Assembly (NCBI GenBank): GCA_964619725.1
Contig: CAZUFC010000159.1
Location: 1 to 17,231 of the forward strand
Length of the DNA stretch: 17,231 bases
DNA from: an uncultured bacterium
GTDB lineage: Bacteria > CSSED10-310 > CAZUFC01
Direction: 5' to 3'
Shown here: piece after piece, positions 5,723-15,726 of the stretch
How positions within the stretch are numbered: the first letter of the stretch is position 1
Layout: the number at the start of each line of letters is the position of its first letter
Translations under genes and position numbers: made by a program
Notes under the pieces: model-generated
What the model was told of the DNA's origin: nothing
What the model saw: only the letters and a program-made list of their open reading frames with translations
The model's database searches: none

Positions 5723-6118
5723 TCATATATGATCCCAAAGCCTTAATCCCGGCACATATTTGAAATGTCTGTCATAGGTCGCTAAAACAGAACCTGATTC
5801 CACCGCATGAGAAGCAATCCACAGATCATTTATGGGGATTGGTTTACCCCTTGTTTTCAATTGGTTCTTTAAAAACCCGAATGCTTCAGCCGTGCTCTGA
5901 TGAGCCAACAGCAATCTTACCGTCGGCTTTGTTAAAAATCGGTGAAGTATCTGCTTGTTCTCCTTTTTTTTCTTTCCGCCCCCAAAACCCGCATACAACT
6001 CACCTAAAACGAAAATGGACATGTATATTGTATCAGCCCCGGAAACAACGCCTAAAACCCTTTCATCGCCTGCCAGGAAATTCGAATACGCGCTTGTATC
6101 AAGCATTACTTTATTCAT
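5723..6118 (-). CDS. vapC: PIN-domain toxin, VapC family
   Basis: LDTSAY, VLGEL, PIPINDLWIASHA, LATYDRHF; ATG at 6118 overlaps the antitoxin stop (ATGA). Confidence 0.92.
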   Translation of the reverse strand: MNKVMLDTSAYSNFLAGDERVLGVVSGADTIYMSIFVLGELYAGFGGGKKKKENKQILHRFLTKPTVRLLLAHQSTAEAFGFLKNQLKTRGKPIPINDLWIASHAVESGSVLATYDRHFKYVPGLRLWDHI

Positions 6119-6372
6119 TTCCATTCCTCTTCATCAATTCCCTCAAAGTCTCTCGTATTTTTTTTAAACTCTTCCAAATCCTCTTTCGTCCAAACGGATA
6201 AAAATTCAACAAATTCACTTTCGTGCTTCATGCTTTCAGCAGGTTTTACGCCCGTCGCTTCCTCAAGGATTTTCTTCACCGTTTTGTTGATGCTCTTGCC
6301 CTCTGCCTTCGCCTTGTTTTTAATCACTTCATACACGGAGTCGTCAATTCCGTGAATTGTAATTGATTTCAT
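6115..6372 (-). CDS. Antitoxin, ribbon-helix-helix (FitA/VapB-like)
   Basis: 85 aa; MKSITIHGIDDSVYEVIKNKAKAEGKSINKTVKKIL RHH pattern and acidic C-terminal tail; translationally coupled to the PIN toxin. Confidence 0.85.
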   Translation of the reverse strand: MKSITIHGIDDSVYEVIKNKAKAEGKSINKTVKKILEEATGVKPAESMKHESEFVEFLSVWTKEDLEEFKKNTRDFEGIDEEEWK

Positions 6373-6431: not shown

Positions 6432-6545
6432 TAATTTATGATGCAAATCAAGGAAAGAAATTGGGGGCTTTTCTTTCTTGCACAACCAAATTATTCTGTG
6501 GAGAGGTCTCTGGAGAAGACTGCAATATTTCAATGGGAGGATGAT

Positions 6546-6953
6546 ATGCGGGTATTATTCTGGTTTTGCGAGCATTTTGCCTGGAAGCCGAGCATGAAGA
6601 CGTTAGATACGGCGGATGAGGCGGAAGCGGACAGTTGGGAGGGTACGGCGGCGGCGTTCGTACATGTGGAATCGAAAGACGTTGAAGAGGGGAGCGGTTC
6701 TGAAACGAAGCTGGTGAAGAACGCCAAGTGGCTTGCGAGGAAATGGGAGGTGAAGCGGATCGTTTTGCATTCATTTGCACATTTGGGAGAAGAGAAGGGG
6801 GACCCGGAAAAGGCGAGAGATTTGCTGAACAGGGCTCAGGACAGGCTAGAGAATGCGGGTTATGACGTAAAACAGACGCCGTACGGTTATTTTTTCGATA
6901 TAGAAATAAAAGCGCCTGGAAAGCCGCTAGCGAGAATCTACAAGGAATGGTGA
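6546..6953 (+). CDS. Free-standing archaeal-type threonyl-tRNA synthetase editing domain (DTD-like fold)
   Basis: GGAGG RBS before ATG 6546; 135 aa; MRVL start, AFVHVE, SFAHL, TPYGYF and GKPLA align with the archaeal ThrRS N-terminal domain motifs AFISVE, PFAHL, APFGYY, GHPLA. Confidence 0.85.
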   Translation: MRVLFWFCEHFAWKPSMKTLDTADEAEADSWEGTAAAFVHVESKDVEEGSGSETKLVKNAKWLARKWEVKRIVLHSFAHLGEEKGDPEKARDLLNRAQDRLENAGYDVKQTPYGYFFDIEIKAPGKPLARIYKEW

Positions 6954-7103: not shown

Positions 7104-7247
7104 AAAAGGCGTCTTTTGAAGTTACAATTCTTCCGAATATGCCATCATTTTGTTTCGATTGCGATTACGATTTCGATCCCGATACCGACCCTGATTACTG
7201 AAAAAACTGTCGAACGTTTTGAAAGAAGTGTAACCCCGGTTTGATCA
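7098..7247. repeat. Dispersed intergenic module Y, copy 2, bounded by TGATCA at both ends
   Basis: Seven hexamers CGATTG CGATTA CGATTT CGATCC CGATAC CGACCC TGATTA (7156-7197); matches to 672-690 and 823-844. Confidence 0.65.
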
Positions 7248-7338: not shown

Positions 7339-7366
7339 TTGACATAAATATTTTCGGCATTATGAT
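7339..7366 (+). promoter_or_regulatory. Putative sigma70 promoter of the Mo-hydroxylase operon
   Basis: TTGACA (7339-7344), 16 bp spacer, TATGAT (7361-7366); AT-rich upstream; 70 bp before GTG 7437. Confidence 0.55.
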
Positions 7367-7436
7367 TTTATGAGCAGCATAAGCGTTTTGTCGAGGTCGT
7401 GATGCGGCGGTTTTTCAATGCGAACGGGAGTGAAAG

Positions 7437-9833
7437 GTGTCGAATATGAAAGAAAAGGATGAAGATCATAGTAGAATGCAACGAGACAATTCTCCGAAGG
7501 ACTATCAGTCGGTGGGCCGTTCGATGTTAAGGGTCGACGGTTACGAGAAGGTTGTAGGAGAAGCCAGGTTCGTTGCGGATTTAAAATTTCCTGATTGTTA
7601 TCATGTGAAGATATTCCGATCTGAATGCGGTCATGGGCGAATCAGGAGGCTGGACGTTTCTGGAGCGGAGAAGACGCCCGGTGTCCGAAAGGTGATCACG
7701 GGCGAAAGCAACGATGTAATGATAGGCGATTGTTTAGCAGACCAGCCGCCGCTGGCGCGAGGCAAGGTAAGGTTCGTGGGAGAGCCGGTAGCGGCTGTAG
7801 TGGCGGAATCGATTGAGAGCGCGGAAGAGGGCGTGAGAATGATCAGGGCGGAATATGAGGAGATGGGAGTGGTATTGACGCCGCGAGAGTCCCTGGAGAA
7901 GGATGCTTCTTTAATTCACGAGAAGCTTGATGAATACGAGCATGTAGGCTCATTGCATCCGCAGCCGGGAACGAACATCTGTCATTATTACAAAGTCAGA
8001 AAAGGCGATACGGAGAGCATATTCAATCATCCGGACGTAATAACGGCGGAGAATGAATTTGAATTTCCTCATCTGTCCCAGGCCGCGTTGGAACCTCACG
8101 GCGCTGTAGCCTTATGGACCAAGGCCGATGATTTATCGATCTGGAGCAGTTGTCAGTCGCCTCATTTAGTCCGGGAGCATGTAGCGCATATACTAAAAAT
8201 GCCCATTGCGCGGGTGAGGGTAATTTCGCCTTTAATCGGAGGCGGCTTCGGCGGAAAATCGGATTTTACGATTGAGCCTTTGATCGCTCTGATAGCGCGT
8301 GAAGTAAAGGGACATCCTGTGAGACTGATTTTGACTCGTGAAGAGGTATTCGTGGGATCGCTGATAGCGCGGGGATGTCAGTGCAAGGTAAAGACGGCCG
8401 TGAGCGCTTCGGGTGAATTACTGGCGCAGCAGATTCAATTTTTGATCAATTGCGGAGCGTACGGCAACTGCAGCGTCAACATAGTTGAAGGCGGCGGACA
8501 TAATGCCACGGGGCCTTACGAGGTACCCAACGTGAAGATAGATGCCATGGGATTATATACGAACACGCCGCCGGTAGGAGCTTACCGGGGTTACGGGCAT
8601 CCCGAAGTGCACTGGATGATAGAGCGGCACATGGACATCCTGGCGGATAAACTTGATATGTCTCCCGTGGAGTTAAGGCTGAAAAACTGTTTCAGACCGG
8701 GGAGTCTTACGGCATTCAACCAGGAAGTGAAGGAAGATCACGGCGATTTGCAGCAATGCATAAGATTGGTGGAGGAGCGATTAAACGATTATCTGGAAAA
8801 CGAGCCGCCGCCCGCAGAAGGGGTATATCGGGGCGCTGGACTGGCCTCTTTCGGCAAGTCCCCGGTAATGGCCGTGAATGCTTCATCAGCCGCATTCATT
8901 CGGTTCAACCACGACGGATCGGTCGATCTGGCGTTCGCAGGGACGGAACTGGGACAGGGTTCATTGACTGCTCTGACGCAGATAGCGGCTGAAGCGCTGG
9001 AAGTTCCTGCGGAGAGCATAAGGGTTTTAAGGAGCAAGGATACGGATGCGACGCCGTATGAGTGGCAGACGGTCGGCAGCACAACCACCTGGAAAGTCGG
9101 CAACGCTATCATCACTGCGGCGGAGAAGGCGAAACGGCGATTAAAGAAGCATGCGGCCATAGTTTTCGGCGTTCACGATACGAACAAGGTTAGATATGAA
9201 CGGGGCGTTTTTTCTCTCGCTGACGATCCTTCCATAACGCTGAAAATCAGCGATATCGCCATGGGGTATGTTTTTCCCAACGGCAGAGCCATTGGGGGGC
9301 CGATCATGGCTTCAGGATATTTCACGCCGGAAGGACTTACTTTTCCGGATGAAAAAACCGGGTTCGGCAACCTGGCGGCTGAATGGACCTTCGGATGCCA
9401 GGGAGCGGTCCTGGACATCGATTCTCAAACAGGTGAAATAACGTTGAGGCGACTTATTACCGCTATAGACGCGGGACAGATAATCAACCCCATGCTGGCC
9501 AGGGGACAGATCGTCGGCGCTATGGTACAGGGTTTGGGAGGCGCTTTAACCGAAAGAATCGTTTACCGGGAAGACGGCAAAATGCGGACCGATTCATTCG
9601 TCGATTATAAAGTGTTGGGACCGGAAGACATGCCGGACAAGTTTGAAGTTCATTTCGTGAATACTCCGACCAAGGACACGCCTTTCGGATGCAGACCCCT
9701 GGCAGAACATGCGATCGTCTCTGTCGCTCCGGCTGTAGCCAATGCCGTGAAAAACGCCTGCGGAGCGGAATTTTTTAATTTGCCCATTATACCTCAGGAC
9801 ATCCTGAAAGCGTTGAAGGATAAAAGGGCGTGA
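7437..9833 (+). CDS. Xanthine dehydrogenase-family molybdopterin-binding (large) subunit
   Basis: 798 aa; RVDGYEKVVG, LEPHGA, SSCQSPH, GGGFGGK, GAYRGYG, ELGQGS, DAGQIINP, GQIVGAMVQGLG, catalytic Glu in RPLAEH; start may be GTG 7437 or ATG 7446. Confidence 0.95.
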   Translation: MSNMKEKDEDHSRMQRDNSPKDYQSVGRSMLRVDGYEKVVGEARFVADLKFPDCYHVKIFRSECGHGRIRRLDVSGAEKTPGVRKVITGESNDVMIGDCLADQPPLARGKVRFVGEPVAAVVAESIESAEEGVRMIRAEYEEMGVVLTPRESLEKDASLIHEKLDEYEHVGSLHPQPGTNICHYYKVRKGDTESIFNHPDVITAENEFEFPHLSQAALEPHGAVALWTKADDLSIWSSCQSPHLVREHVAHILKMPIARVRVISPLIGGGFGGKSDFTIEPLIALIAREVKGHPVRLILTREEVFVGSLIARGCQCKVKTAVSASGELLAQQIQFLINCGAYGNCSVNIVEGGGHNATGPYEVPNVKIDAMGLYTNTPPVGAYRGYGHPEVHWMIERHMDILADKLDMSPVELRLKNCFRPGSLTAFNQEVKEDHGDLQQCIRLVEERLNDYLENEPPPAEGVYRGAGLASFGKSPVMAVNASSAAFIRFNHDGSVDLAFAGTELGQGSLTALTQIAAEALEVPAESIRVLRSKDTDATPYEWQTVGSTTTWKVGNAIITAAEKAKRRLKKHAAIVFGVHDTNKVRYERGVFSLADDPSITLKISDIAMGYVFPNGRAIGGPIMASGYFTPEGLTFPDEKTGFGNLAAEWTFGCQGAVLDIDSQTGEITLRRLITAIDAGQIINPMLARGQIVGAMVQGLGGALTERIVYREDGKMRTDSFVDYKVLGPEDMPDKFEVHFVNTPTKDTPFGCRPLAEHAIVSVAPAVANAVKNACGAEFFNLPIIPQDILKALKDKRA

Positions 9834-9957
9834 CGGAAACTCCCATCGTTAAATTAAAACAGGCCGGAACGATGAAGTATTCACGTTTGAGCATTGTTTT
9901 ATAATATTCTCGGGCGATGGTAAATTCGGAGAGATATTTAACCGGAAAGGATCACAT

Positions 9958-10827
9958 ATGAACAGATACAGATACAGATACATAGCCCCCGCTTCTTTGA
10001 ACGAGGCGCTGGAAGCGTTGCAGCAGCCGGGATCGACAGCGCTGGCGGGCGGCACCGATCTGACGATCTCGTTAAGAAACGGGGATGCAAAGCCTGATAC
10101 GGTCGTCGATATTAAAAAGATAGAGGAACTTAAGAGAATTGAATTGAACGAAGACCACATTTTCGTGGGTGCGTTGATCACGATGGCGGAGATAAGGCGA
10201 AACAAGGCCATAGCGGAGCAATTGCGTTGTTTATATGAATCGGCGGCATCCTTTGCGTGCTATGAAATAAGAATCAGGGCCACCATAGGCGGAAACCTGG
10301 CCAATGCAGCCCCCTGCGCACAGACCGCACCCAATCTGCTCGTGATGGAGGCTTCCGCGGTCACAGCCTCTCAGAAGGGAACGCGTGAGTTTCCCATAAA
10401 AAAGCTGATCACAGGCGTATATCGCACCAATCTTGAGCCGGGTGAACTGATAACAGGGATCAAAATACCCAAACCTCATCCCACGGCAAAAACCGGTTCA
10501 TTCCGTATCGCCCGCATGAAGGGGATGGACCTTCCGTCGGTCAGCGGCGCCATGCTGGTGCAATATCCCGAAGATGATGAAAAAAGGGAGGTTCGATTCG
10601 CTCTGGGTTCAGTTGCGGCAACCCCGATCAGGTTGTCCGACGTGGAAGAAAAATTGAGCCGCAAGCCGCTGACGCGGGAACTTCTGGAGCAGGCGAAGGA
10701 AATCGTTAGGGAGCAGTTGAATCCCAGAAAAACGAGCCTGCGTGCTTCTCCTGAATATAAGAAGCATATAACGGGCGTTCATCTGGAAAGTTTGCTGAAA
10801 CGGTTAACGGGTATAAAATTCGATTAA
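9958..10827 (+). CDS. Xanthine dehydrogenase-family FAD-binding (medium) subunit
   Basis: 289 aa; LAGGTDL, RATIGGNLANAAP, GELITGI, ALGSVAATP, RASPEYK. Confidence 0.95.
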   Translation: MNRYRYRYIAPASLNEALEALQQPGSTALAGGTDLTISLRNGDAKPDTVVDIKKIEELKRIELNEDHIFVGALITMAEIRRNKAIAEQLRCLYESAASFACYEIRIRATIGGNLANAAPCAQTAPNLLVMEASAVTASQKGTREFPIKKLITGVYRTNLEPGELITGIKIPKPHPTAKTGSFRIARMKGMDLPSVSGAMLVQYPEDDEKREVRFALGSVAATPIRLSDVEEKLSRKPLTRELLEQAKEIVREQLNPRKTSLRASPEYKKHITGVHLESLLKRLTGIKFD

Positions 10828-10842
10828 AAGGCGGAACAAACT

Positions 10843-11319
10843 ATGAAAATACAATTTAAATTAAACGGTGAACAGAGGGAAGCGAATATTCCGGACCACA
10901 GGAGATTAATAGATTTCATCAGGGAAGATATGGGACTGACGGGAACCAAGGAAGGCTGCGGCAACGGAGAATGCGGAGCGTGCACGGTGCTGATGGACGG
11001 GATGCCGGTCAGGTCCTGTCTTGTTCTGGCTCCAGAGATAGACGGTTCGGAAATAACCACTATAGAAGGGTTGGACCGCAACGGAAAGCTGCATCCTGTT
11101 CAGCAGGCGTTTCTTGAAACAGGAGCGGTTCAATGCGGGTTCTGCACCGCAGGATTCGTTCTGGCCGTTAAAGCGCTGCTCGACAGGAATGCGAGTCCGG
11201 ACGAAGCGGAAATAATGGAAGCGCTGGGCGGACATTTATGTCGCTGCACGGGATATGAAACTATTTTTGAAGCGGTGGAAAGAGCAATAGAATTGAATAA
11301 GAAGGCGCAGAAGGTATAA
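10843..11319 (+). CDS. Xanthine dehydrogenase-family 2x[2Fe-2S] (small) subunit
   Basis: 158 aa; GTKEGCGNGECGACTV...SCL, QCGFC, HLCRCTGY. Confidence 0.96.
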   Translation: MKIQFKLNGEQREANIPDHRRLIDFIREDMGLTGTKEGCGNGECGACTVLMDGMPVRSCLVLAPEIDGSEITTIEGLDRNGKLHPVQQAFLETGAVQCGFCTAGFVLAVKALLDRNASPDEAEIMEALGGHLCRCTGYETIFEAVERAIELNKKAQKV

Positions 11320-11409
11320 TCGATGTGAAGGCTTTCAGAGAATGAAGGCCGTGAAAAATGATGCAGCGGCGGCGGAGCCGTCTTCAAGCGTAAAAGGAGT
11401 AGACAGAAA

Positions 11410-12651
11410 ATGGACTTAATCGTAAAAAACGCCAGGATTGAAGGAGAGGAAAAATTAACCGACATAGCCGTGCAGGACGGAACAATCGTTCGGATCGCTC
11501 CGGATATTCAAGATAACGCGGATAAAACGGTCGATGCTGAAGGAAGGCTGACCGCCCCTACATTCGTTGATCCTCACATCCACCTGGACAAGTGTCTGAT
11601 CAGCGAGACCGTAAGAGAAAACAAATCGGGAACGTTGACCGAGGCGATAGAGATAATATGGGAGCGGAAGAAGAATTATACAGCGGATGAGATAGCGGAA
11701 AGGGCCTGTCGAGCCGTGCAATGGGCCGTTCAGAACGGAACGACGAAGCTGAGAACGCACGTGGATGTTGATCCGATCGGCGGTTTGACGCCGCTGGAAG
11801 GTGTGGCGAAGGCGAGAAAGATGTGTGCCGATATAGCTGAGATACAAATAGTGGCTTTTCCTCAGGAAGGCATTATCCAGGCGGAGGGCACGGAAGAATT
11901 GATGCGCCAGGCTATGGAAAAGGGAGCCGATATAATAGGCGGCATGCCTTATAACGAGATGACTGATGTGGACTCGATGAAACATATCGATATAGTATTC
12001 GATATTGCGGCGGAATACGATTGCGATATCGACATGCACGTGGATGAGACGGACGACGATACAGCGCGCACCCTGCAGTATTTCGCGGCCAAAGCGATCA
12101 AAACGGGCATGAAGGGCCGGGTAACCTCCGGGCATACATGCGCGTTGAGCGCGTATAATCCCTATTACGCAGCAAAAATAATAGGTCTCGTCGCAACCGC
12201 TGATATGAACATGATAACCAATCCGGCCACCAACCTGATGCTGGAAGGCCGCCGCGATACCGTAAACAAGAGAAGAGGACTGACCAGGGTTAAAGAGTTG
12301 ATGGAAGCGGGCGTCAACGTCTGTTACGGTCAGGATTGCATTAAAGATACTTTTTACCCCACTTTCGGAAAGGCTGATCTGCTGGAAGTGGGCATGATAG
12401 CAGCCCATGCCGCTCAACTGTCCATGCCCGCAGATATAAATGCTCTTTTCCGGATGCCGACCCATAATGCGGCTCGATGCATGAGACTGGAGAAATACGG
12501 ACTGAAAGAGGGCGCAAAGGCTGATTTCAATATACTGGATTGCGAAACCGTTCAGGAAGCCTTCCGCCTGCAGCCGGACAGAACGGTATTCTTCCGGGGT
12601 AGTTTGACAGCACAAAGAACCACCAGGCAGGAGTTGTTCAGGCAAAATTAA
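11410..12651 (+). CDS. codA: Cytosine deaminase (CodA)-like metal-dependent amidohydrolase; substrate uncertain
   Basis: 413 aa; AAGGAG RBS; DPHIHLDK, RTHVDV, IVAFPQEG, MHVDE, SGHTCAL, RRGLTRVKEL, GQDCIKDTFYP. Confidence 0.88.
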   Translation: MDLIVKNARIEGEEKLTDIAVQDGTIVRIAPDIQDNADKTVDAEGRLTAPTFVDPHIHLDKCLISETVRENKSGTLTEAIEIIWERKKNYTADEIAERACRAVQWAVQNGTTKLRTHVDVDPIGGLTPLEGVAKARKMCADIAEIQIVAFPQEGIIQAEGTEELMRQAMEKGADIIGGMPYNEMTDVDSMKHIDIVFDIAAEYDCDIDMHVDETDDDTARTLQYFAAKAIKTGMKGRVTSGHTCALSAYNPYYAAKIIGLVATADMNMITNPATNLMLEGRRDTVNKRRGLTRVKELMEAGVNVCYGQDCIKDTFYPTFGKADLLEVGMIAAHAAQLSMPADINALFRMPTHNAARCMRLEKYGLKEGAKADFNILDCETVQEAFRLQPDRTVFFRGSLTAQRTTRQELFRQN

Positions 12652-12691
12652 ACGAGGGCAAATTTTGCCGTCATAAAAGGAATTAATTCAT

Positions 12692-13462
12692 ATGAGTGAA
12701 GACGAAAGACAATACCACATATCTCTAAAAAAAGGGGATGTCGCTCGATATGTCCTTCTGCCGGGCGATCCCGGACGAGTCCCCAGGATTGCCGAATACC
12801 TGGATGAGGCTGAAAAAATAGCCGAAAACAGGGAATACCGGACATATACGGGAAAATACAAGGGCATACCCGTATCAGTCGTTTCCACAGGCATAGGCTG
12901 TCCCTCCGCTGCCATAGCCATTGAAGAACTCATCAAAATAGGAGCCGATACCTTCATAAGAGTCGGAACGGCCGGGTCGCTTCAACCGGATATCTCACTG
13001 GGAGACCTCGTTATATCAACCGGTTCGGTCAGAGAAGAAGGCACAACGAAACAATACGTTCCGGAAATATATCCTGCAGTTGCCGACATCGAAGTGACTT
13101 CTGCCCTGAAGCAGGCTGCGGTTAACCTGGGTTATCCGCATCACCTGGGCATCAGCCATTGTAAAGACGCCTTCTACTCGGAAGATATGGACATTCCGTT
13201 GCGGGAGGAACAGGAGATAAGATGGAAAGTCTGGCAAAGGGCCCGCGTCCTGGCGACATCAATGGAATCTGCAGCTCTTTTCGTCATTTCCTCCATTAGG
13301 GGCGTCAGAACCGGGGAAATCCTCGCAGTTATTGGCTCTACGCATGATAATCAACCCATTATAAAAAAAGCGGGAATAGGAGAAGCCGTAAAAACAGCAT
13401 TGGAAGCCGTCAGGATACTCGATGCTAAAAACGATCACGCCGATCAGACACTGCGTCGTTAG
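12692..13462 (+). CDS. udp: Nucleoside phosphorylase, NP-I family (uridine phosphorylase-like); base specificity uncertain
   Basis: 256 aa; QYHI, LPGDPGRV, NREY, STGIGCPSAAIAIEEL, IRVGTAGSL, AVAD, MESAALF. Confidence 0.88.
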   Translation: MSEDERQYHISLKKGDVARYVLLPGDPGRVPRIAEYLDEAEKIAENREYRTYTGKYKGIPVSVVSTGIGCPSAAIAIEELIKIGADTFIRVGTAGSLQPDISLGDLVISTGSVREEGTTKQYVPEIYPAVADIEVTSALKQAAVNLGYPHHLGISHCKDAFYSEDMDIPLREEQEIRWKVWQRARVLATSMESAALFVISSIRGVRTGEILAVIGSTHDNQPIIKKAGIGEAVKTALEAVRILDAKNDHADQTLRR

Positions 13463-13662: not shown

Positions 13663-13770
13663 GTAAAAACCTTGAGTATTGCCGGCGTTACTTTTAAAAT
13701 TTTTAAGCAAAAGAATCGAACTGCCGGGCTTTTTCGATGTTTGAAAGTTGGGTCAGATTTTAAAGCAAAA

Positions 13771-14751
13771 ATGAACAAAGTAATTTTCTCCATATCAAGA
13801 ATAATCATTTTTTCAAGTATAATGGGATTACTTCTGATATTGTTTTTATCCGTCTATCTGGCGCCTAACCCGTCGTTTCAATTCGCAGTAAGATCGGACC
13901 TCAATTTCCTCGTTCGTTTTTATCTGCTTATGGGCGTGATACCCGTCGCGAATGACGTTTTTTCGCCTCTGCACGTTGCTGCGGAGAACAATAATCCTAA
14001 AATGTTCAAGATGTTGTACGATGCCGGACTTGAAATACGGTATGGTGATTATCTGTATCATACTGCATTCAAAAGCCAAAACGCTGCGCTATGGAAAACG
14101 TTTTTCGAATGCGGCGTTCCTTTTAATTTTAATAATCAACGTTTAATAGAAACGGCATTTGGAGCGGCGGATGCTGTAACTGCAGACAGATTAATGGAAT
14201 CAGGAGCAGATTTAAATAGTGCGATGAAAGGCGCGATGGAAAATGAAAATATGCCGGTGATTGATAAACTCGCCAAAACAGGCGCTGAACCTCGGATACA
14301 ATATTTCAAAAAATCAAGCACGAAGCAGTTATATTTGAAAATGTCCAAATGGATCGCTAAAGAACAGCTAATAGAAAAAGCAGCCGATTCGGGAAAAGTC
14401 GAAGCGCTGGCTGCGATTTTTGACATAACGGATAGAAACGAAATTTCTGAAGAGTTTGATGAGTTTTGTTTGCAACTCGCCTACAAGGCTGTTGAACAGA
14501 ATTACTATGAAATAGTGGAATTCCTTCTGCAGCATCTTGAAGACATAGATCGGGAGTTTTTACCTGAAAAATTCGAGAGAATGATGCTTATTACTTATAT
14601 TGATTCCGAGTCTGTGCTGTCTTATGCAGGAAGCCTTCTGCAACATGCGATGAGATTAAAACGGCATGAAATAGCTGAATTAATAAATAAGAAAGCGAAG
14701 CGATATGACAGCGATTTTGATGAGCGGTCAACGACCTATGAAACAAAATAG
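13771..14751 (+). CDS. Ankyrin-repeat-like protein with N-terminal membrane anchor
   Basis: Hydrophobic N-terminus; ankyrin-like SPLHVAAENNNPKMFKMLYDAG, LMESGADLN, AVEQNYYEIVEFLL, LLQHAMRLKRHEIAELI; start uncertain (ORF open from TTG 13672). Confidence 0.65.
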   Translation: MNKVIFSISRIIIFSSIMGLLLILFLSVYLAPNPSFQFAVRSDLNFLVRFYLLMGVIPVANDVFSPLHVAAENNNPKMFKMLYDAGLEIRYGDYLYHTAFKSQNAALWKTFFECGVPFNFNNQRLIETAFGAADAVTADRLMESGADLNSAMKGAMENENMPVIDKLAKTGAEPRIQYFKKSSTKQLYLKMSKWIAKEQLIEKAADSGKVEALAAIFDITDRNEISEEFDEFCLQLAYKAVEQNYYEIVEFLLQHLEDIDREFLPEKFERMMLITYIDSESVLSYAGSLLQHAMRLKRHEIAELINKKAKRYDSDFDERSTTYETK

Positions 14752-15013: not shown

Positions 15014-15307
15014 ATGAAAAGAGCTGCCATATCAGAAATAAAGTCATCGATAAGCAGGTACCTGGCGGAAGTAAGAAAAGGGGAAGAGATAGTCATAACG
15101 GATCGAAAAAAGCCGATAGCTAAGATTGTTCCATACGAGGGCGAAGACACGGGCATACCGACGCGAGTGCAAAAGCTTGCTTATGCTGGATTGGCAAAGA
15201 TCGGCAAGACCAGTATTCCGGATGATTTCTGGAAAAGAAGAGATTACAGGGATAAGGACGGAAAAGCCGTTTCTTTCCTTCTGGAGGAAAGAAGAGCTGG
15301 GCGATGA
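15014..15307 (+). CDS. Phd/YefM family antitoxin
   Basis: 97 aa; ISEIKSSISRYLAEVRKGEEIVITDRKKPIAKIVP; ATGA overlap with the toxin gene. Confidence 0.92.
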   Translation: MKRAAISEIKSSISRYLAEVRKGEEIVITDRKKPIAKIVPYEGEDTGIPTRVQKLAYAGLAKIGKTSIPDDFWKRRDYRDKDGKAVSFLLEERRAGR

Positions 15308-15726
15308 AATTCTGGGATGCTTCAGCGATAATCCCGTTGTGCCTGGAAGAAGAAAATTCAGGAACCCTGCAAAGAATAGCGGAAGAAGACAGCGCTCTGG
15401 CAGTATGGTGGGGAACCCTGATTGAATGTTTTTCAACCATTGCGCGTCTGCGCAGAGAAAAAATAGTGTCTATGGAAGAGGAACAGGCAATCAGAAAAAA
15501 TGTCATGATTCTGTCAAATTTATGGACAGAGATTCTACCGGGGCATGAGTTGAGGATCACGGCAGCCAATATATTGCTGAGGCATCCGTTAAGGGCGGCG
15601 GATGCTTTTCAGTTAGCGGCCGCCCTTGTTTGGGCGGACAGGAATCCGACTGACGATTATTTCGTCAGTCTGGACACGCGGTTGAATCAGTCAGCGTTAC
15701 AGGAGGGTTTCTCTGTTCTTCCATAG
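15304..15726 (+). CDS. vapC: PIN-domain toxin, VapC family
   Basis: 140 aa; FWDASA, LIEC, LRAADAFQLAAA, FVSLDTRL...ALQEGF. Confidence 0.92.
   Translation: MKFWDASAIIPLCLEEENSGTLQRIAEEDSALAVWWGTLIECFSTIARLRREKIVSMEEEQAIRKNVMILSNLWTEILPGHELRITAANILLRHPLRAADAFQLAAALVWADRNPTDDYFVSLDTRLNQSALQEGFSVLP

Follow-up and report, generated by a model that had tools for sequence, protein, structure and literature searches.

A five-gene cluster that may encode the upper part of an anaerobic oxidative pathway for pyrimidine nucleosides

The oxidative pyrimidine pathway, to our knowledge known only from a few aerobic actinobacteria, employs uracil/thymine dehydrogenase, barbiturase and ureidomalonase. A gene-level description of its first enzyme was not found in the literature searched. 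This route is one of four listed for pyrimidines in a 2025 paper, the others being the reductive, Rut and URC routes (PMC12507026). The same source gives the composition of the reductive uric acid cluster (XdhD-YgfM, YgfK, SsnA, HyuA, YgeW, YqeA, YgeX), in which the xanthine dehydrogenase (XDH) homologue XdhD reduces urate anaerobically (PMC12507026), and E. coli AllFGH is described as an oxamic transcarbamylase (PMC11326118). Here we analyse a cluster of five genes on a 17 231-nt contig of an uncultured bacterium (CAZUFC010000159.1; C159 in our numbering), the whole of which is called the window. The contig belongs to a 9.17 Mb bacterial genome bin of 344 contigs (90.9% complete, 6.5% contaminated). 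The genes encode the molybdenum-cofactor (Mo), FAD and 2Fe-2S (FeS) subunits of a molybdenum hydroxylase, a CodA-like deaminase and a Udp-like phosphorylase. We propose, with a probability of about 0.55, that they form the upper part of an anaerobic oxidative pathway for pyrimidine nucleoside catabolism. The cluster had been put forward as a candidate undescribed operon in a preliminary description, and no account of such a pathway came to light: neither a gene set of this kind nor an anaerobic barbiturate route was found in the full-text literature, whose coverage leaves out subscription journals and supplements.

We infer every substrate and reaction of this pathway from gene families, residue changes, gene neighbourhoods and genome-level co-occurrence. 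The phosphorylase would release the free base and ribose-1-phosphate from a pyrimidine nucleoside, which would be cytidine if the Gln-to-Glu switch described below alters specificity and uridine otherwise. The Mo/FAD/2Fe-2S hydroxylase would then place a water-derived oxygen on ring carbon C6, and the deaminase would remove the 4-amino group; the two reactions together would yield barbiturate. With hydroxylation first, cytosine would pass through 6-hydroxycytosine (6-aminouracil) to barbiturate; in the alternative order, cytosine would be deaminated and the resulting uracil hydroxylated. A cyclase-family metal hydrolase (PF04199) would open barbiturate to ureidomalonate. Because ureidomalonate is the one-CH2 homologue of oxalurate, an AllF/G/H-like carbamoyltransferase is proposed to phosphorolyse it to malonamate and carbamoyl phosphate, from which carbamate kinase would make ATP. 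The three remaining carbons would depart as a (methyl)malonyl unit, to be activated and decarboxylated. This lower part would be encoded elsewhere in the present genome and beside the upper part in others.

Neighbourhoods were compared in three sets of loci, referred to by L numbers. The deaminase-anchored set was collected with an alignment of 36 close homologues as the query, one genome per species, and comprises the best 80 of 586 relatives; since the scan patterns included the GQDC motif, all 80 fall in the 'GQDC' clade by construction. Proteins of the window and of a related locus (G027) were placed on these loci by tblastn. The Mo-anchored set holds the best 80 of 590 relatives and the phosphorylase-anchored set the best 80 of 600, and some contigs occur twice among the loci (L026 = L013, L048 = L014, L106 = L047, L117 = L046, L209 = L050). 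The 40 nearest genomes compared are phylum-level kin or more distant, and hold three full-length relatives of the deaminase.

An orthologous Mo subunit (identity of at least 40%, in fact 44–52%, and a GGKSD motif) accompanies the deaminase in 22 of the 80 deaminase loci, an adjacency that covers at least five phyla. AllG is present in 19, a PF04199 'cyclase'-family gene in 17, FdrA in 15 and a Udp-like gene in 10, and at least one of Mo, Udp-like, cyclase and AllG in 34; four further loci carry unrelated XDH paralogues (26–30% identity). Several gene orders recur. L028 has the Mo-FAD-FeS-CodA-Udp order of the window and L065 (Zixibacteria) nearly the same one. The order is FdrA-AllG-(cyclase)-Mo-FAD-FeS-CodA-(cyclase) in seven loci and (AllH)-FdrA-AllG-CodA-cyclase-Udp, with the Mo enzyme not nearby, in eight. 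In twelve Firmicutes loci (11 of them full-length) it is CodA-Mo-FAD-FeS, frequently preceded by genes for an IclR regulator and an NCS1 cytosine/purine permease. Atribacterota and Myxococcota loci also hold a PnrA-like nucleoside ABC transporter. The linkage of the three enzyme families suggested earlier for this cluster thus recurs in many phyla, beyond what chance would give.

These counts bear directly on the view that the genes are chance neighbours, an ordinary uridine phosphorylase and cytosine deaminase of salvage lying behind an unrelated Mo hydroxylase, to which we give the least credence of all. It would account for a phosphorylase that passes a uridine phosphorylase model, for promoter-like sites before both the Mo gene and the deaminase gene, and for a close homologue of the deaminase (63% identity, L013), the one relative found in a single-protein locus search, which has no partner genes nearby. 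The recurrence of the Mo-deaminase adjacency speaks against it, as does the co-variation of Mo subclades with the type of neighbouring amidohydrolase; the deaminase, moreover, fails both cytosine deaminase cut-offs and is without the Asp314 of CodA.

The nearest NCBIfam model of the deaminase is PRK07572, 'cytosine deaminase', which it misses at 400.2 against a cut-off of 438, PRK09230 being missed by more (340.8 against 483). It is ∼38–40% identical to E. coli CodA (1K6W, E = 9e-85), and keeps the His/His/His/Asp metal site and three further CodA residues (H56, H58, H210, D309, Q152, E213 and H242, of which Q152, E213 and H242 are the equivalents of CodA Gln156, Glu217 and His246). Three CodA positions are changed, identically in 36 of 36 clade sequences: Asp314 to Cys310, Thr66 to Lys61 and Trp319 to Phe315. 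By alignment, K61 corresponds to AtzC Lys65 and C310 to AtzC Asn304, in agreement with the structure paper on AtzC, which equates Lys65 with CodA Thr66 and Asn304 with CodA Asp314 (PMC4577212). AtzC is a distant relative (E = 2e-49), its His219 being Glu here and its Asn304 Cys. In the docked model that this paper describes, Asn304 and Lys65 bind a ring oxygen that is present in ammelide and absent in cytosine (PMC4577212). By analogy, Lys61 would point to a substrate that bears a 6-oxo group, for example 6-aminouracil or ammelide. The CodA Asp is reported as critical for specificity, with Ser in its place in the Klebsiella 5-methylcytosine deaminase and activity towards 5-methylcytosine gained on mutation to Ala (PMC6186785). 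The small Cys310 would leave room at ring position 5. Both this residue and the mmdA-like decarboxylase found in a related cluster (below) are compatible with 5-methyl (thymine-type) substrates, but nothing separates methyl from H.

A further clue to the substrate comes from Alphaproteobacteria, whose loci among the 80 have none of the Mo, Udp-like, cyclase and AllG partners. Instead, a PF09663 ring-opening amidohydrolase lies near the GQDC deaminase in nine alphaproteobacterial loci and an amidase in ten. Of the copies in the four PF09663 loci scanned, three are full-length and score above the cut-off of the cyanuric acid amidohydrolase equivalog (426–443 against 360), and a shortened fourth (L094) scores 324. 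The cyanuric acid amidohydrolase genes of these bacteria adjoin an amidase. As the GQDC clade thus adjoins an enzyme that opens a 2,4,6-trioxo six-membered ring, a monocyclic substrate is argued for over a purine or a pterin. Locus L066 also holds three TRZ/ATZ-family hydrolases, a creatininase and a second, PRK07572-type CodA, and the GQDC 'cytosine deaminases' of L063, L066, L078 and L094 are candidate ammelide deaminases in melamine- or cyanurate-type clusters.

Could the window itself encode an s-triazine route? The deaminase would then be an ammelide aminohydrolase, and the Mo enzyme would hydroxylate a triazine, for example 5-azacytosine to ammelide, in the degradation of a triazine nucleoside or xenobiotic. 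The alphaproteobacterial neighbours (cyanuric acid amidohydrolase, amidases and TRZ/ATZ-family hydrolases) and the lysine held in common with ammelide-deaminating AtzC fit this idea. We nevertheless find it very improbable, since natural triazines are rare, many anaerobic phyla, Asgard archaea among them, carry the Mo-linked cluster, and the (methyl)malonyl-CoA-decarboxylase-like genes of related clusters need a carbon chain that triazines lack. PF09663, the barbiturase family, was not found in this genome (90.9% complete), a weak point because the control matched in 0 of 14 genomes, though hmmscan did find the family in other loci.

The hydroxylase has the three-subunit make-up of XDH, with Mo-cofactor, FAD and two 2Fe-2S domains, and fails the corresponding equivalogs: the nearest NCBIfam models of its subunits are XdhA, XdhB and XdhC, all below cut-off (506 against 780, 187 against 310 and 186 against 217), and the 2Fe-2S subunit lies below every equivalog cut-off. 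In other loci the FAD gene stays adjacent to the Mo gene and the 2Fe-2S gene to the FAD gene. Mo-subunit orthologues share GGGFGGKSD, RGYGHPE, PYEWQTV and AEH/GEH motifs, of which GGGFGGKSD, RGYGHPE and AEH are invariant. Glu757, also invariant in the Mo-clade alignment, aligns with the 'GEPP' glutamate of E. coli XdhA, and its counterpart is presumably the catalytic Glu1261 near the C-terminus of bovine XDH. We take the purine-binding positions of the bovine enzyme to be Glu802, after GGGFGGK, and Arg880, in the RG.G motif. The window subunit keeps the arginine (Arg384) and has Ser275-Asp276 after GGK, where E. coli XdhA has Gln-Asp. With Cys310 and Lys61 of the deaminase and Glu164 of the phosphorylase (below), this GGKSD motif supports the earlier claim that all three enzymes deviate at base-recognition positions.

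In a FastTree phylogeny of 80 Mo sequences, with 28 distant rows and two duplicate contigs omitted, the window enzyme falls in a 51-row clade (support 100), and its sister group (support 97) consists of five loci with CodA plus AllG or cyclase. The clade excludes the four other paralogues of this genome, and also E. coli XdhA, which groups with the paralogue on contig C10 (GGKQE motif; support 98). A second Mo enzyme, XDH#1, forms a five-row sister clade (support 97) with the gene order FAD-FeS-Mo and a GGKSG or GGKAG motif, and directly adjoins cyclase-AllG-FdrA. An XDH#1 orthologue was not found in this genome, in which its best match is the window enzyme (38.5–39% identity). Within the window's clade, the type of neighbouring amidohydrolase co-varies with Mo subclade. 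The other type, here called amidoII, is a different, CodA-related protein, 33–37% identical to the window deaminase, with carriers that include Synergistota, Atribacterota and Chloroflexota. Udp-like genes accompany it in L125 and L130, and AllG, FdrA or cyclase do so in L109, L120 and L122; it is a candidate ring-opening enzyme rather than a deaminase.

Asgard archaeal records (L109, L110 and L114; Heimdall-, Hod- and Promethearchaeota) also carry GGKSD-clade Mo subunits, and in L109 the neighbours of the Mo gene are FdrA, AllG and an acyl-CoA dehydrogenase gene. The module is thus not confined to Bacteria.

Among solved structures, 4-hydroxybenzoyl-CoA reductase (1RM6, E = 1e-88) is nearest to the Mo subunit, which raises the question of direction. 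In a reductive or salvage role, the Mo enzyme would strip an oxo group from an oxidized base, and the deaminase and phosphorylase would return the product to nucleosides; nucleoside phosphorylases are reversible, and the urate-reducing XdhD introduced above provides a precedent in an XDH homologue. However, the conserved partners of the cluster are catabolic and energy-yielding (carbamate kinase, the AllFGH-like complex and a Na-pump decarboxylase), and a YgfK-like or PydA-like reductase is not in the recurrent set. We regard such a role as quite improbable.

The largest clusters bring the proposed upper and lower parts together. In Moorella naiadis (L191 and L052, ∼30 kb) the order is AllH-FdrA-AllG-cyclase-XDH#1-NCS2 permease-PucR-GNAT-like (213 aa)-thiolase-like-DUF35-CodA-NCS1 permease-Mo-FAD-FeS-carbamate kinase, the last passing the arcC equivalog (379 against 358). 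A Halanaerobiales locus (L192) reads PucR-AllH-mmdA-like-OadG-biotin carrier-Na-translocating decarboxylase beta-GNAT-like (256 aa)-FdrA-AllG-cyclase-carbamate kinase-XDH#1, the CodA-Mo pair of that genome sitting on a different contig. Here the decarboxylase beta subunit passes TIGR01109 and the carbamate kinase its equivalog (434 against 358), and the mmdA-like carboxyltransferase scores 898 bits, below the subfamily cut-off of 999. A relative of Clostridium thermobutyricum has AllH-FdrA-AllG-family III CoA-transferase-cyclase. The recurrent set thus spans nucleobase or nucleoside uptake, Mo hydroxylase, deaminase, a cyclic-amide-type hydrolase, an acyl-urea carbamoyltransferase, carbamate kinase and enzymes of (methyl)malonyl thioesters. 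A conserved trio also travels with the pathway genes (Table 1), made up of a 213–262 aa protein with no Pfam match, a thiolase-like protein and a DUF35/OB-fold protein. The first of these is GNAT-like by language-model features alone, which we treat as a lead, and the trio may act on the malonyl or malonamoyl remnant.

That the largest clusters hold XDH#1 as well as a window-type enzyme suggests different substrates for the two, for example uracil and cytosine, and this fits hydroxylation first. Together with Lys61 and Cys310, the sister Mo enzyme may therefore favour hydroxylation before deamination. The chain from base to deaminated base to hydroxylated base that had been drawn earlier keeps its linked enzymes, with the order of its last two steps perhaps reversed.

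Deaminases and Mo dehydrogenases also meet in pterin breakdown, a setting in which the CodA-like protein would deaminate pterins and the Mo enzyme would act as a lumazine-type dehydrogenase. Pterin deaminase activity is reported for a CDA-like protein of Agrobacterium radiobacter, and Rhizobiales lumazine clusters are reported to carry CDA-like genes in place of pterin deaminase beside a Mo lumazine dehydrogenase (PMC12391406). The nucleoside phosphorylase, nucleobase permeases and PnrA-like transporter are ill-suited to pterins, though, and the hallmark amidase-signature isomerase and prFMN decarboxylase are not among the recurrent neighbours, which makes this route very unlikely.

The phosphorylase has the NP-I fold (PF01048, PNP_UDP_1; 159.9 bits against a cut-off of 25.1) and is the only protein of the cluster to pass a curated equivalog, that of uridine phosphorylase (UP) TIGR01718 (294.5 against 280.3). 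It misses the E. coli-type model NF008383 (183.9 against 262). Its best solved relative is the UP of Streptococcus pyogenes (SpUP; 3QPB, E = 2e-69), in which a chain offset of 23 puts Lys162, Gln168 and His169 at KDAFYGQH. Lys162 contacts uracil O2. The corresponding stretch of the window protein is KDAFYSED: Lys158 is kept, and Glu164 and Asp165 stand at SpUP Gln168 and His169. The clade motif is KDAF[YF]xE, with the Glu invariant in 34 of 34 sequences and K158 also invariant, and 42 Gln-type relatives keep GQH or GQN. The Gln and His/Arg of UP specificity (Gln168/His169 in SpUP, Gln166/Arg168 in the E. coli enzyme) are thus absent from the window protein. An amide-to-carboxylate switch is the classical change from an oxo- to an amino-specific site, as in purine nucleoside phosphorylase. 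The Gln and Arg of the UP-specificity region are termed essential discriminating residues (PMC7271239).

Pathway partners lie beside nine of 38 Glu-type phosphorylase loci and none of 42 Gln-type loci, so that the Gln type serves as a natural control; among the 19 loci with at least 60% identity, eight have a partner. Cytidine deaminase (TIGR01354) was not found in this genome bin, the control profile matching in 10 of 14 genomes. It is this finding, together with the Gln-to-Glu switch, that leads to the idea of a cytidine phosphorylase.

At genome level, an even draw of 201 Bacillota genomes was examined for AllG (PF06545) and for the best match to the Mo profile. AllG is present in all 17 genomes with a Mo match of at least 830 bits; 9 of the 68 with a weaker match (E at most 1e-100) have it, as do 5 of the 116 with no such match. 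The Mo gene shares a contig with AllG, at most 15.2 kb away, in 15 of the 17. It counts against these figures that the 830-bit threshold was picked after seeing a gap in the scores (832.7 to 787.1) and that related genomes are not independent, and we therefore take them as a strong association and not as a formal test. AllG is also found in five of five Firmicutes genomes with a CodA-Mo pair, against one of 14 well-known genomes (E. coli) as a control.

Candidates for the lower part are present in this genome (Table 1). All three AllFGH-type subunits lie together on C156, as single copies in the bin. The sole PF04199 gene is on C2 in an unrelated-looking context, the only XdhC and carbamate kinase genes found in the bin are on C22, and members of the trio, in single copy, are on C4. 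The C22 region resembles that around ygeW-yqeA in E. coli, which belongs to the reductive urate pathway. Homologues of allB, allC, allD and allE were not found beside the AllFGH genes, here or in the related clusters examined. In a Vulcanimicrobiota record, the deaminase, the Mo subunit and the Udp-like gene (the last with GNAT-like and thiolase-like genes) are on different contigs (L021, L102 and L203), with no partner beside either the deaminase or the Mo gene. A scattered arrangement is therefore not unique to the present bin.

Several of these findings also suit a purine route, in which a purine nucleoside such as isoguanosine would be cleaved, isoguanine or another aminopurine would be deaminated to xanthine by the CodA-like enzyme, and the Mo enzyme would be an XDH that makes urate; AllFGH and carbamate kinase would then serve allantoin catabolism as its ordinary oxalurate branch. 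The annotation of E. coli CodA is cytosine/isoguanine deaminase, the second-best solved relative of the phosphorylase is the purine nucleoside phosphorylase of Thermus thermophilus, and the XdhA/B/C models are the best for the three hydroxylase subunits. PucR-type regulators and NCS2 (xanthine/uracil) permeases occur in related clusters. The AllG of this genome is 44% identical to E. coli AllG, part of the oxamic transcarbamylase (PMC11326118), and 52% to the cluster type, and could therefore be a true oxamate carbamoyltransferase of purine or allantoin catabolism. On the other side, every Xdh equivalog score is far below its cut-off, and it is the C10 paralogue, not the window enzyme, that groups with E. 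coli XdhA. We know of no anaerobic conversion of urate to oxalurate. Beside AllFGH, the annotated loci have no allantoinase, allantoate amidohydrolase, ureidoglycolate dehydrogenase or uricase, and YgfK, SsnA, HyuA and prFMN decarboxylase are likewise absent from them. Finally, a malonyl and not an oxalyl product is indicated by the mmdA-like Na-pump decarboxylase that lies within the AllH...FdrA operon, and the deaminase clade is also found with cyanuric acid hydrolase, which acts on a monocyclic ring. On balance we judge a purine route unlikely. Of the two routes offered in the preliminary description, that from a pyrimidine to barbiturate is accordingly the one favoured by context, because of the cyanuric-acid/barbiturase-family hydrolase in aerobes and the carbamoyltransferase, carbamate kinase and decarboxylase-like complex in anaerobes, and that from isoguanosine to urate is less so.

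Other observations weigh against the oxidative pyrimidine pathway as we propose it, in addition to the regulators, permeases and AllG just named. The CoA-transferase of L193 is nearest a CoA:oxalate transferase model (383 against 522). The window itself has no ring-opening hydrolase and no carbamoyltransferase; the lower-pathway genes are scattered on other contigs, and their assignment to the same organism rests on the completeness and contamination of the bin given above. None of the four partners is present at 46 of the 80 deaminase loci, many of them on short contigs, for which a missing partner is no evidence of absence. The Udp link is modest, in that Mo and Udp-like genes occur together only in L028 and L065 (2 of 22 Mo loci), and 11 of the 19 phosphorylase loci with at least 60% identity show no partner. 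Beside one Mo subclade the deaminase is replaced by amidoII (HLHLCK... and SMLIDDAGD motifs), which is without the equivalents of His214 and Glu217; the deaminase is therefore a non-obligatory partner, and the company of Glu-type phosphorylases with this non-deaminase weakens the case for cytidine. The argument from Lys61 is an analogy with a docked AtzC model. Finally, the nearest NCBIfam models of the Mo enzyme, XDH and 4-hydroxybenzoyl-CoA reductase, make a purine substrate or the reductive direction possible.

If our proposal is right, an oxygen-independent form of the oxidative pyrimidine route exists across many anaerobic phyla, with energy conserved by substrate-level phosphorylation from carbamoyl phosphate and, in some genomes, also by a sodium-pumping decarboxylase. 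Functions would follow for several large families now 'hypothetical' or misnamed, namely GQDC 'cytosine deaminases', Glu-type 'uridine phosphorylases', GGKSD 'xanthine dehydrogenases', cluster-type PF04199 cyclases and non-allantoin AllFGH proteins, and automatic annotation would be corrected in hundreds of metagenome-assembled genomes. In a stronger form of the proposal, which we put forward as doubtful, the three enzymes would be a natural cytidine phosphorylase, a molybdenum cytosine 6-hydroxylase and a 6-aminouracil deaminase, feeding a fermentative, ATP-yielding pyrimidine pathway that extends from Firmicutes to Asgard archaea. These would be three activities without an assigned gene, and a genuine cytidine phosphorylase would be of use in nucleoside synthesis. 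Direct tests of these hypotheses are possible, as cultured carriers exist and all of the proposed substrates can be purchased.

The features discussed are collected in Table 1. The list of open reading frames and the Pfam and NCBIfam scans agree with the five co-oriented genes first described, separated by 124, 15, 90 and 40 bp in the order Mo, FAD, FeS, deaminase, phosphorylase, and with the absence of transporter, regulator, barbiturase and XdhC genes from the window. Their spacing and orientation suggest an operon. The single promoter assigned to it earlier fares less well: a good site does precede the Mo gene, as a consensus match only, but a second site before the deaminase gene is a possible, predicted internal promoter, and the 10 promoter-like sites within 6800–13 800 are not above chance (8.4 ± 2.7 in shuffles). 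The genome bin has 27 sigma-70 matches. An Rfam scan of the window gave no family match, the leader hairpin included. About 150 nt upstream of the first promoter-like site, at 7150–7200, lies a degenerate run of GAT-rich hexamers, cgattgcgattacgatttcgatcccgataccgaccctgattac, which could be a regulator-binding array or a chance repeat.

Table 1. Coordinates and characteristics of the features discussed (contigs C and loci L in our numbering; G000:C4 lies in the present genome)
Feature	Location	Strand	Details
Mo-cofactor subunit	window 7437..9833	+	798 aa; Pfam Ald_Xan_dh_C, MoCoBD_1, MoCoBD_2
FAD-binding subunit	window 9958..10827	+	289 aa; Pfam FAD_binding_5, CO_deh_flav_C
2Fe-2S subunit	window 10843..11319	+	158 aa; Pfam Fer2, Fer2_2
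CodA-family metal-dependent deaminase, 'GQDC' clade	window 11410..12651	+	413 aa; Pfam Amidohydro_3/1
NP-I nucleoside phosphorylase, Udp-like	window 12692..13462	+	256 aa; Pfam PNP_UDP_1
Promoter-like site TTGACA-16-TATGAT	window 7339..7366	+	11/12 consensus matches; 71 nt upstream of Mo-subunit start
Second promoter-like site TTGAAT-16-TATAAT	window 11293..11320	+	10/12 matches; at 2Fe-2S gene end, 90 nt before deaminase gene
Short G+C hairpin, then T-run, in 5' leader	window 7396..7417	+	Between promoter-like site and start codon; terminator-like, 5-pair stem, 3 G-C
AllH-FdrA-AllG, then asparagine-synthase-like gene	C156:7180-11300		AllH 65 bits; AllG 330 bits; FdrA subfamily 448 against 433
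Sole PF04199 gene of the genome	C2		53.5% identical to cluster type
Carbamate kinase, XdhC, orphan FAD subunit, MocA-like cytidylyltransferase, two PALP enzymes, OTCase-like gene	C22 ∼27870-36690 (L185 4874-13690)		
262-aa protein, thiolase-like and DUF35-like genes	C4		262-aa protein 70% and thiolase-like 62% identical to those of L028
amidoII	L120 3542-4747; L122 1698-2933; L125 4445-5602; L130 12896-14029; others		
Conserved trio (or part)	G000:C4:56402-58779 (L184 6403-8780); L028 1919-3783; L052 7347-9637; L192 5425-6195		

Other genes of the window were noted in passing. An ankyrin-repeat protein gene (13672-14751, + strand) directly follows the cluster; it lies in a stretch with a G+C content of ∼39–40%, against ∼50% in the cluster, and may be a later insertion. 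An adenosine deaminase homologue (1538-2758, − strand, 406 aa) scores below the equivalog cut-offs and is matched in two stretches (∼14–137 and ∼190–382), which suggests an insertion of ∼50 residues. This gene was considered as a member of the cluster and rejected: it lies on the opposite strand, 4.7 kb away, and does not recur near the cluster elsewhere. A free-standing 171-aa protein (6438-6953, + strand) is an 'archaea-specific' threonyl-tRNA synthetase editing domain (PF08915, 123.6 bits) in a bacterial genome, possibly a trans-editing factor. There are two PIN/VapC-type toxin genes (5723-6124, − strand, and 15014-15726, + strand); an overlapping Phd/YefM-type antitoxin gene (15014-15307) precedes the second, and a small open reading frame (6115-6372) upstream of the first could encode its antitoxin.

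Single enzymes of the cluster can be set beside described ones. The deaminase has the fold, metal ligands and Gln156/Glu217/His246 equivalents of the E. coli codBA product, and its Firmicutes relatives likewise pair it with an NCS1 permease; it differs in having Cys, Lys and Phe at Asp314, Thr66 and Trp319, and in being linked to a Mo hydroxylase and not to salvage genes. With AtzC/TrzC-AtzD it would have in common both the Lys65 equivalent and the logic of deaminating a 4-amino-2,6-dioxo ring to a trioxo ring, which is then opened by a hydrolase. Unlike AtzC, it has a CodA-type Glu for His219 and Cys for Asn304, and its gene is preceded by that of the Mo hydroxylase, which implies a carbon position to oxidize. 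The phosphorylase conserves the Lys162 equivalent and the phosphate and ribose regions of S. pyogenes UP, whereas Gln168 is replaced by a clade-invariant Glu and His169 by Asp or Gly.

Whole gene sets offer broader comparisons. The pterin deaminase-lumazine dehydrogenase cluster of Cupriavidus and Rhizobiales also serves an N-heterocycle by means of a deaminase, which is CDA-like in Rhizobiales, and a Mo dehydrogenase, but its carriers are aerobic soil bacteria and its isomerase and decarboxylase are not seen here. The reductive uric acid cluster is likewise anaerobic and combines an XDH homologue, an amidohydrolase, a carbamoyltransferase and carbamate kinase; among our recurrent neighbours, in contrast, there is no YgfK, SsnA, HyuA, YgeX or YgeY, and the carbamoyltransferase is of the AllFGH and not the OTCase type. 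Homologues of the three subunits encoded by E. coli allFGH-allK occur here, on C156, and in related clusters, often with carbamate kinase, and the same phosphorolysis of an acyl-urea is proposed. They differ from the E. coli set in order (AllH-FdrA-AllG), in sequence (34–44% identity), in that allantoin genes are not nearby, and in their proposed substrate, which would be ureidomalonate. The oxidative pyrimidine pathway of aerobic actinobacteria agrees with our proposal in the chemistry of the first steps, from the ring by hydroxylation to barbiturate and by hydrolytic opening to ureidomalonate. That pathway has a PF09663 barbiturase, where the recurrent ring-hydrolase candidate here is the PF04199 cyclase-family protein, and hydrolyses the ureido compound to urea, where phosphorolysis to carbamoyl phosphate, and thus ATP, is proposed here. 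The carriers of the present gene set are mainly anaerobic, and a deaminase and a phosphorylase are attached. What would be new relative to the known oxidative pathway is thus the use of non-homologous lower enzymes and the conservation of energy.

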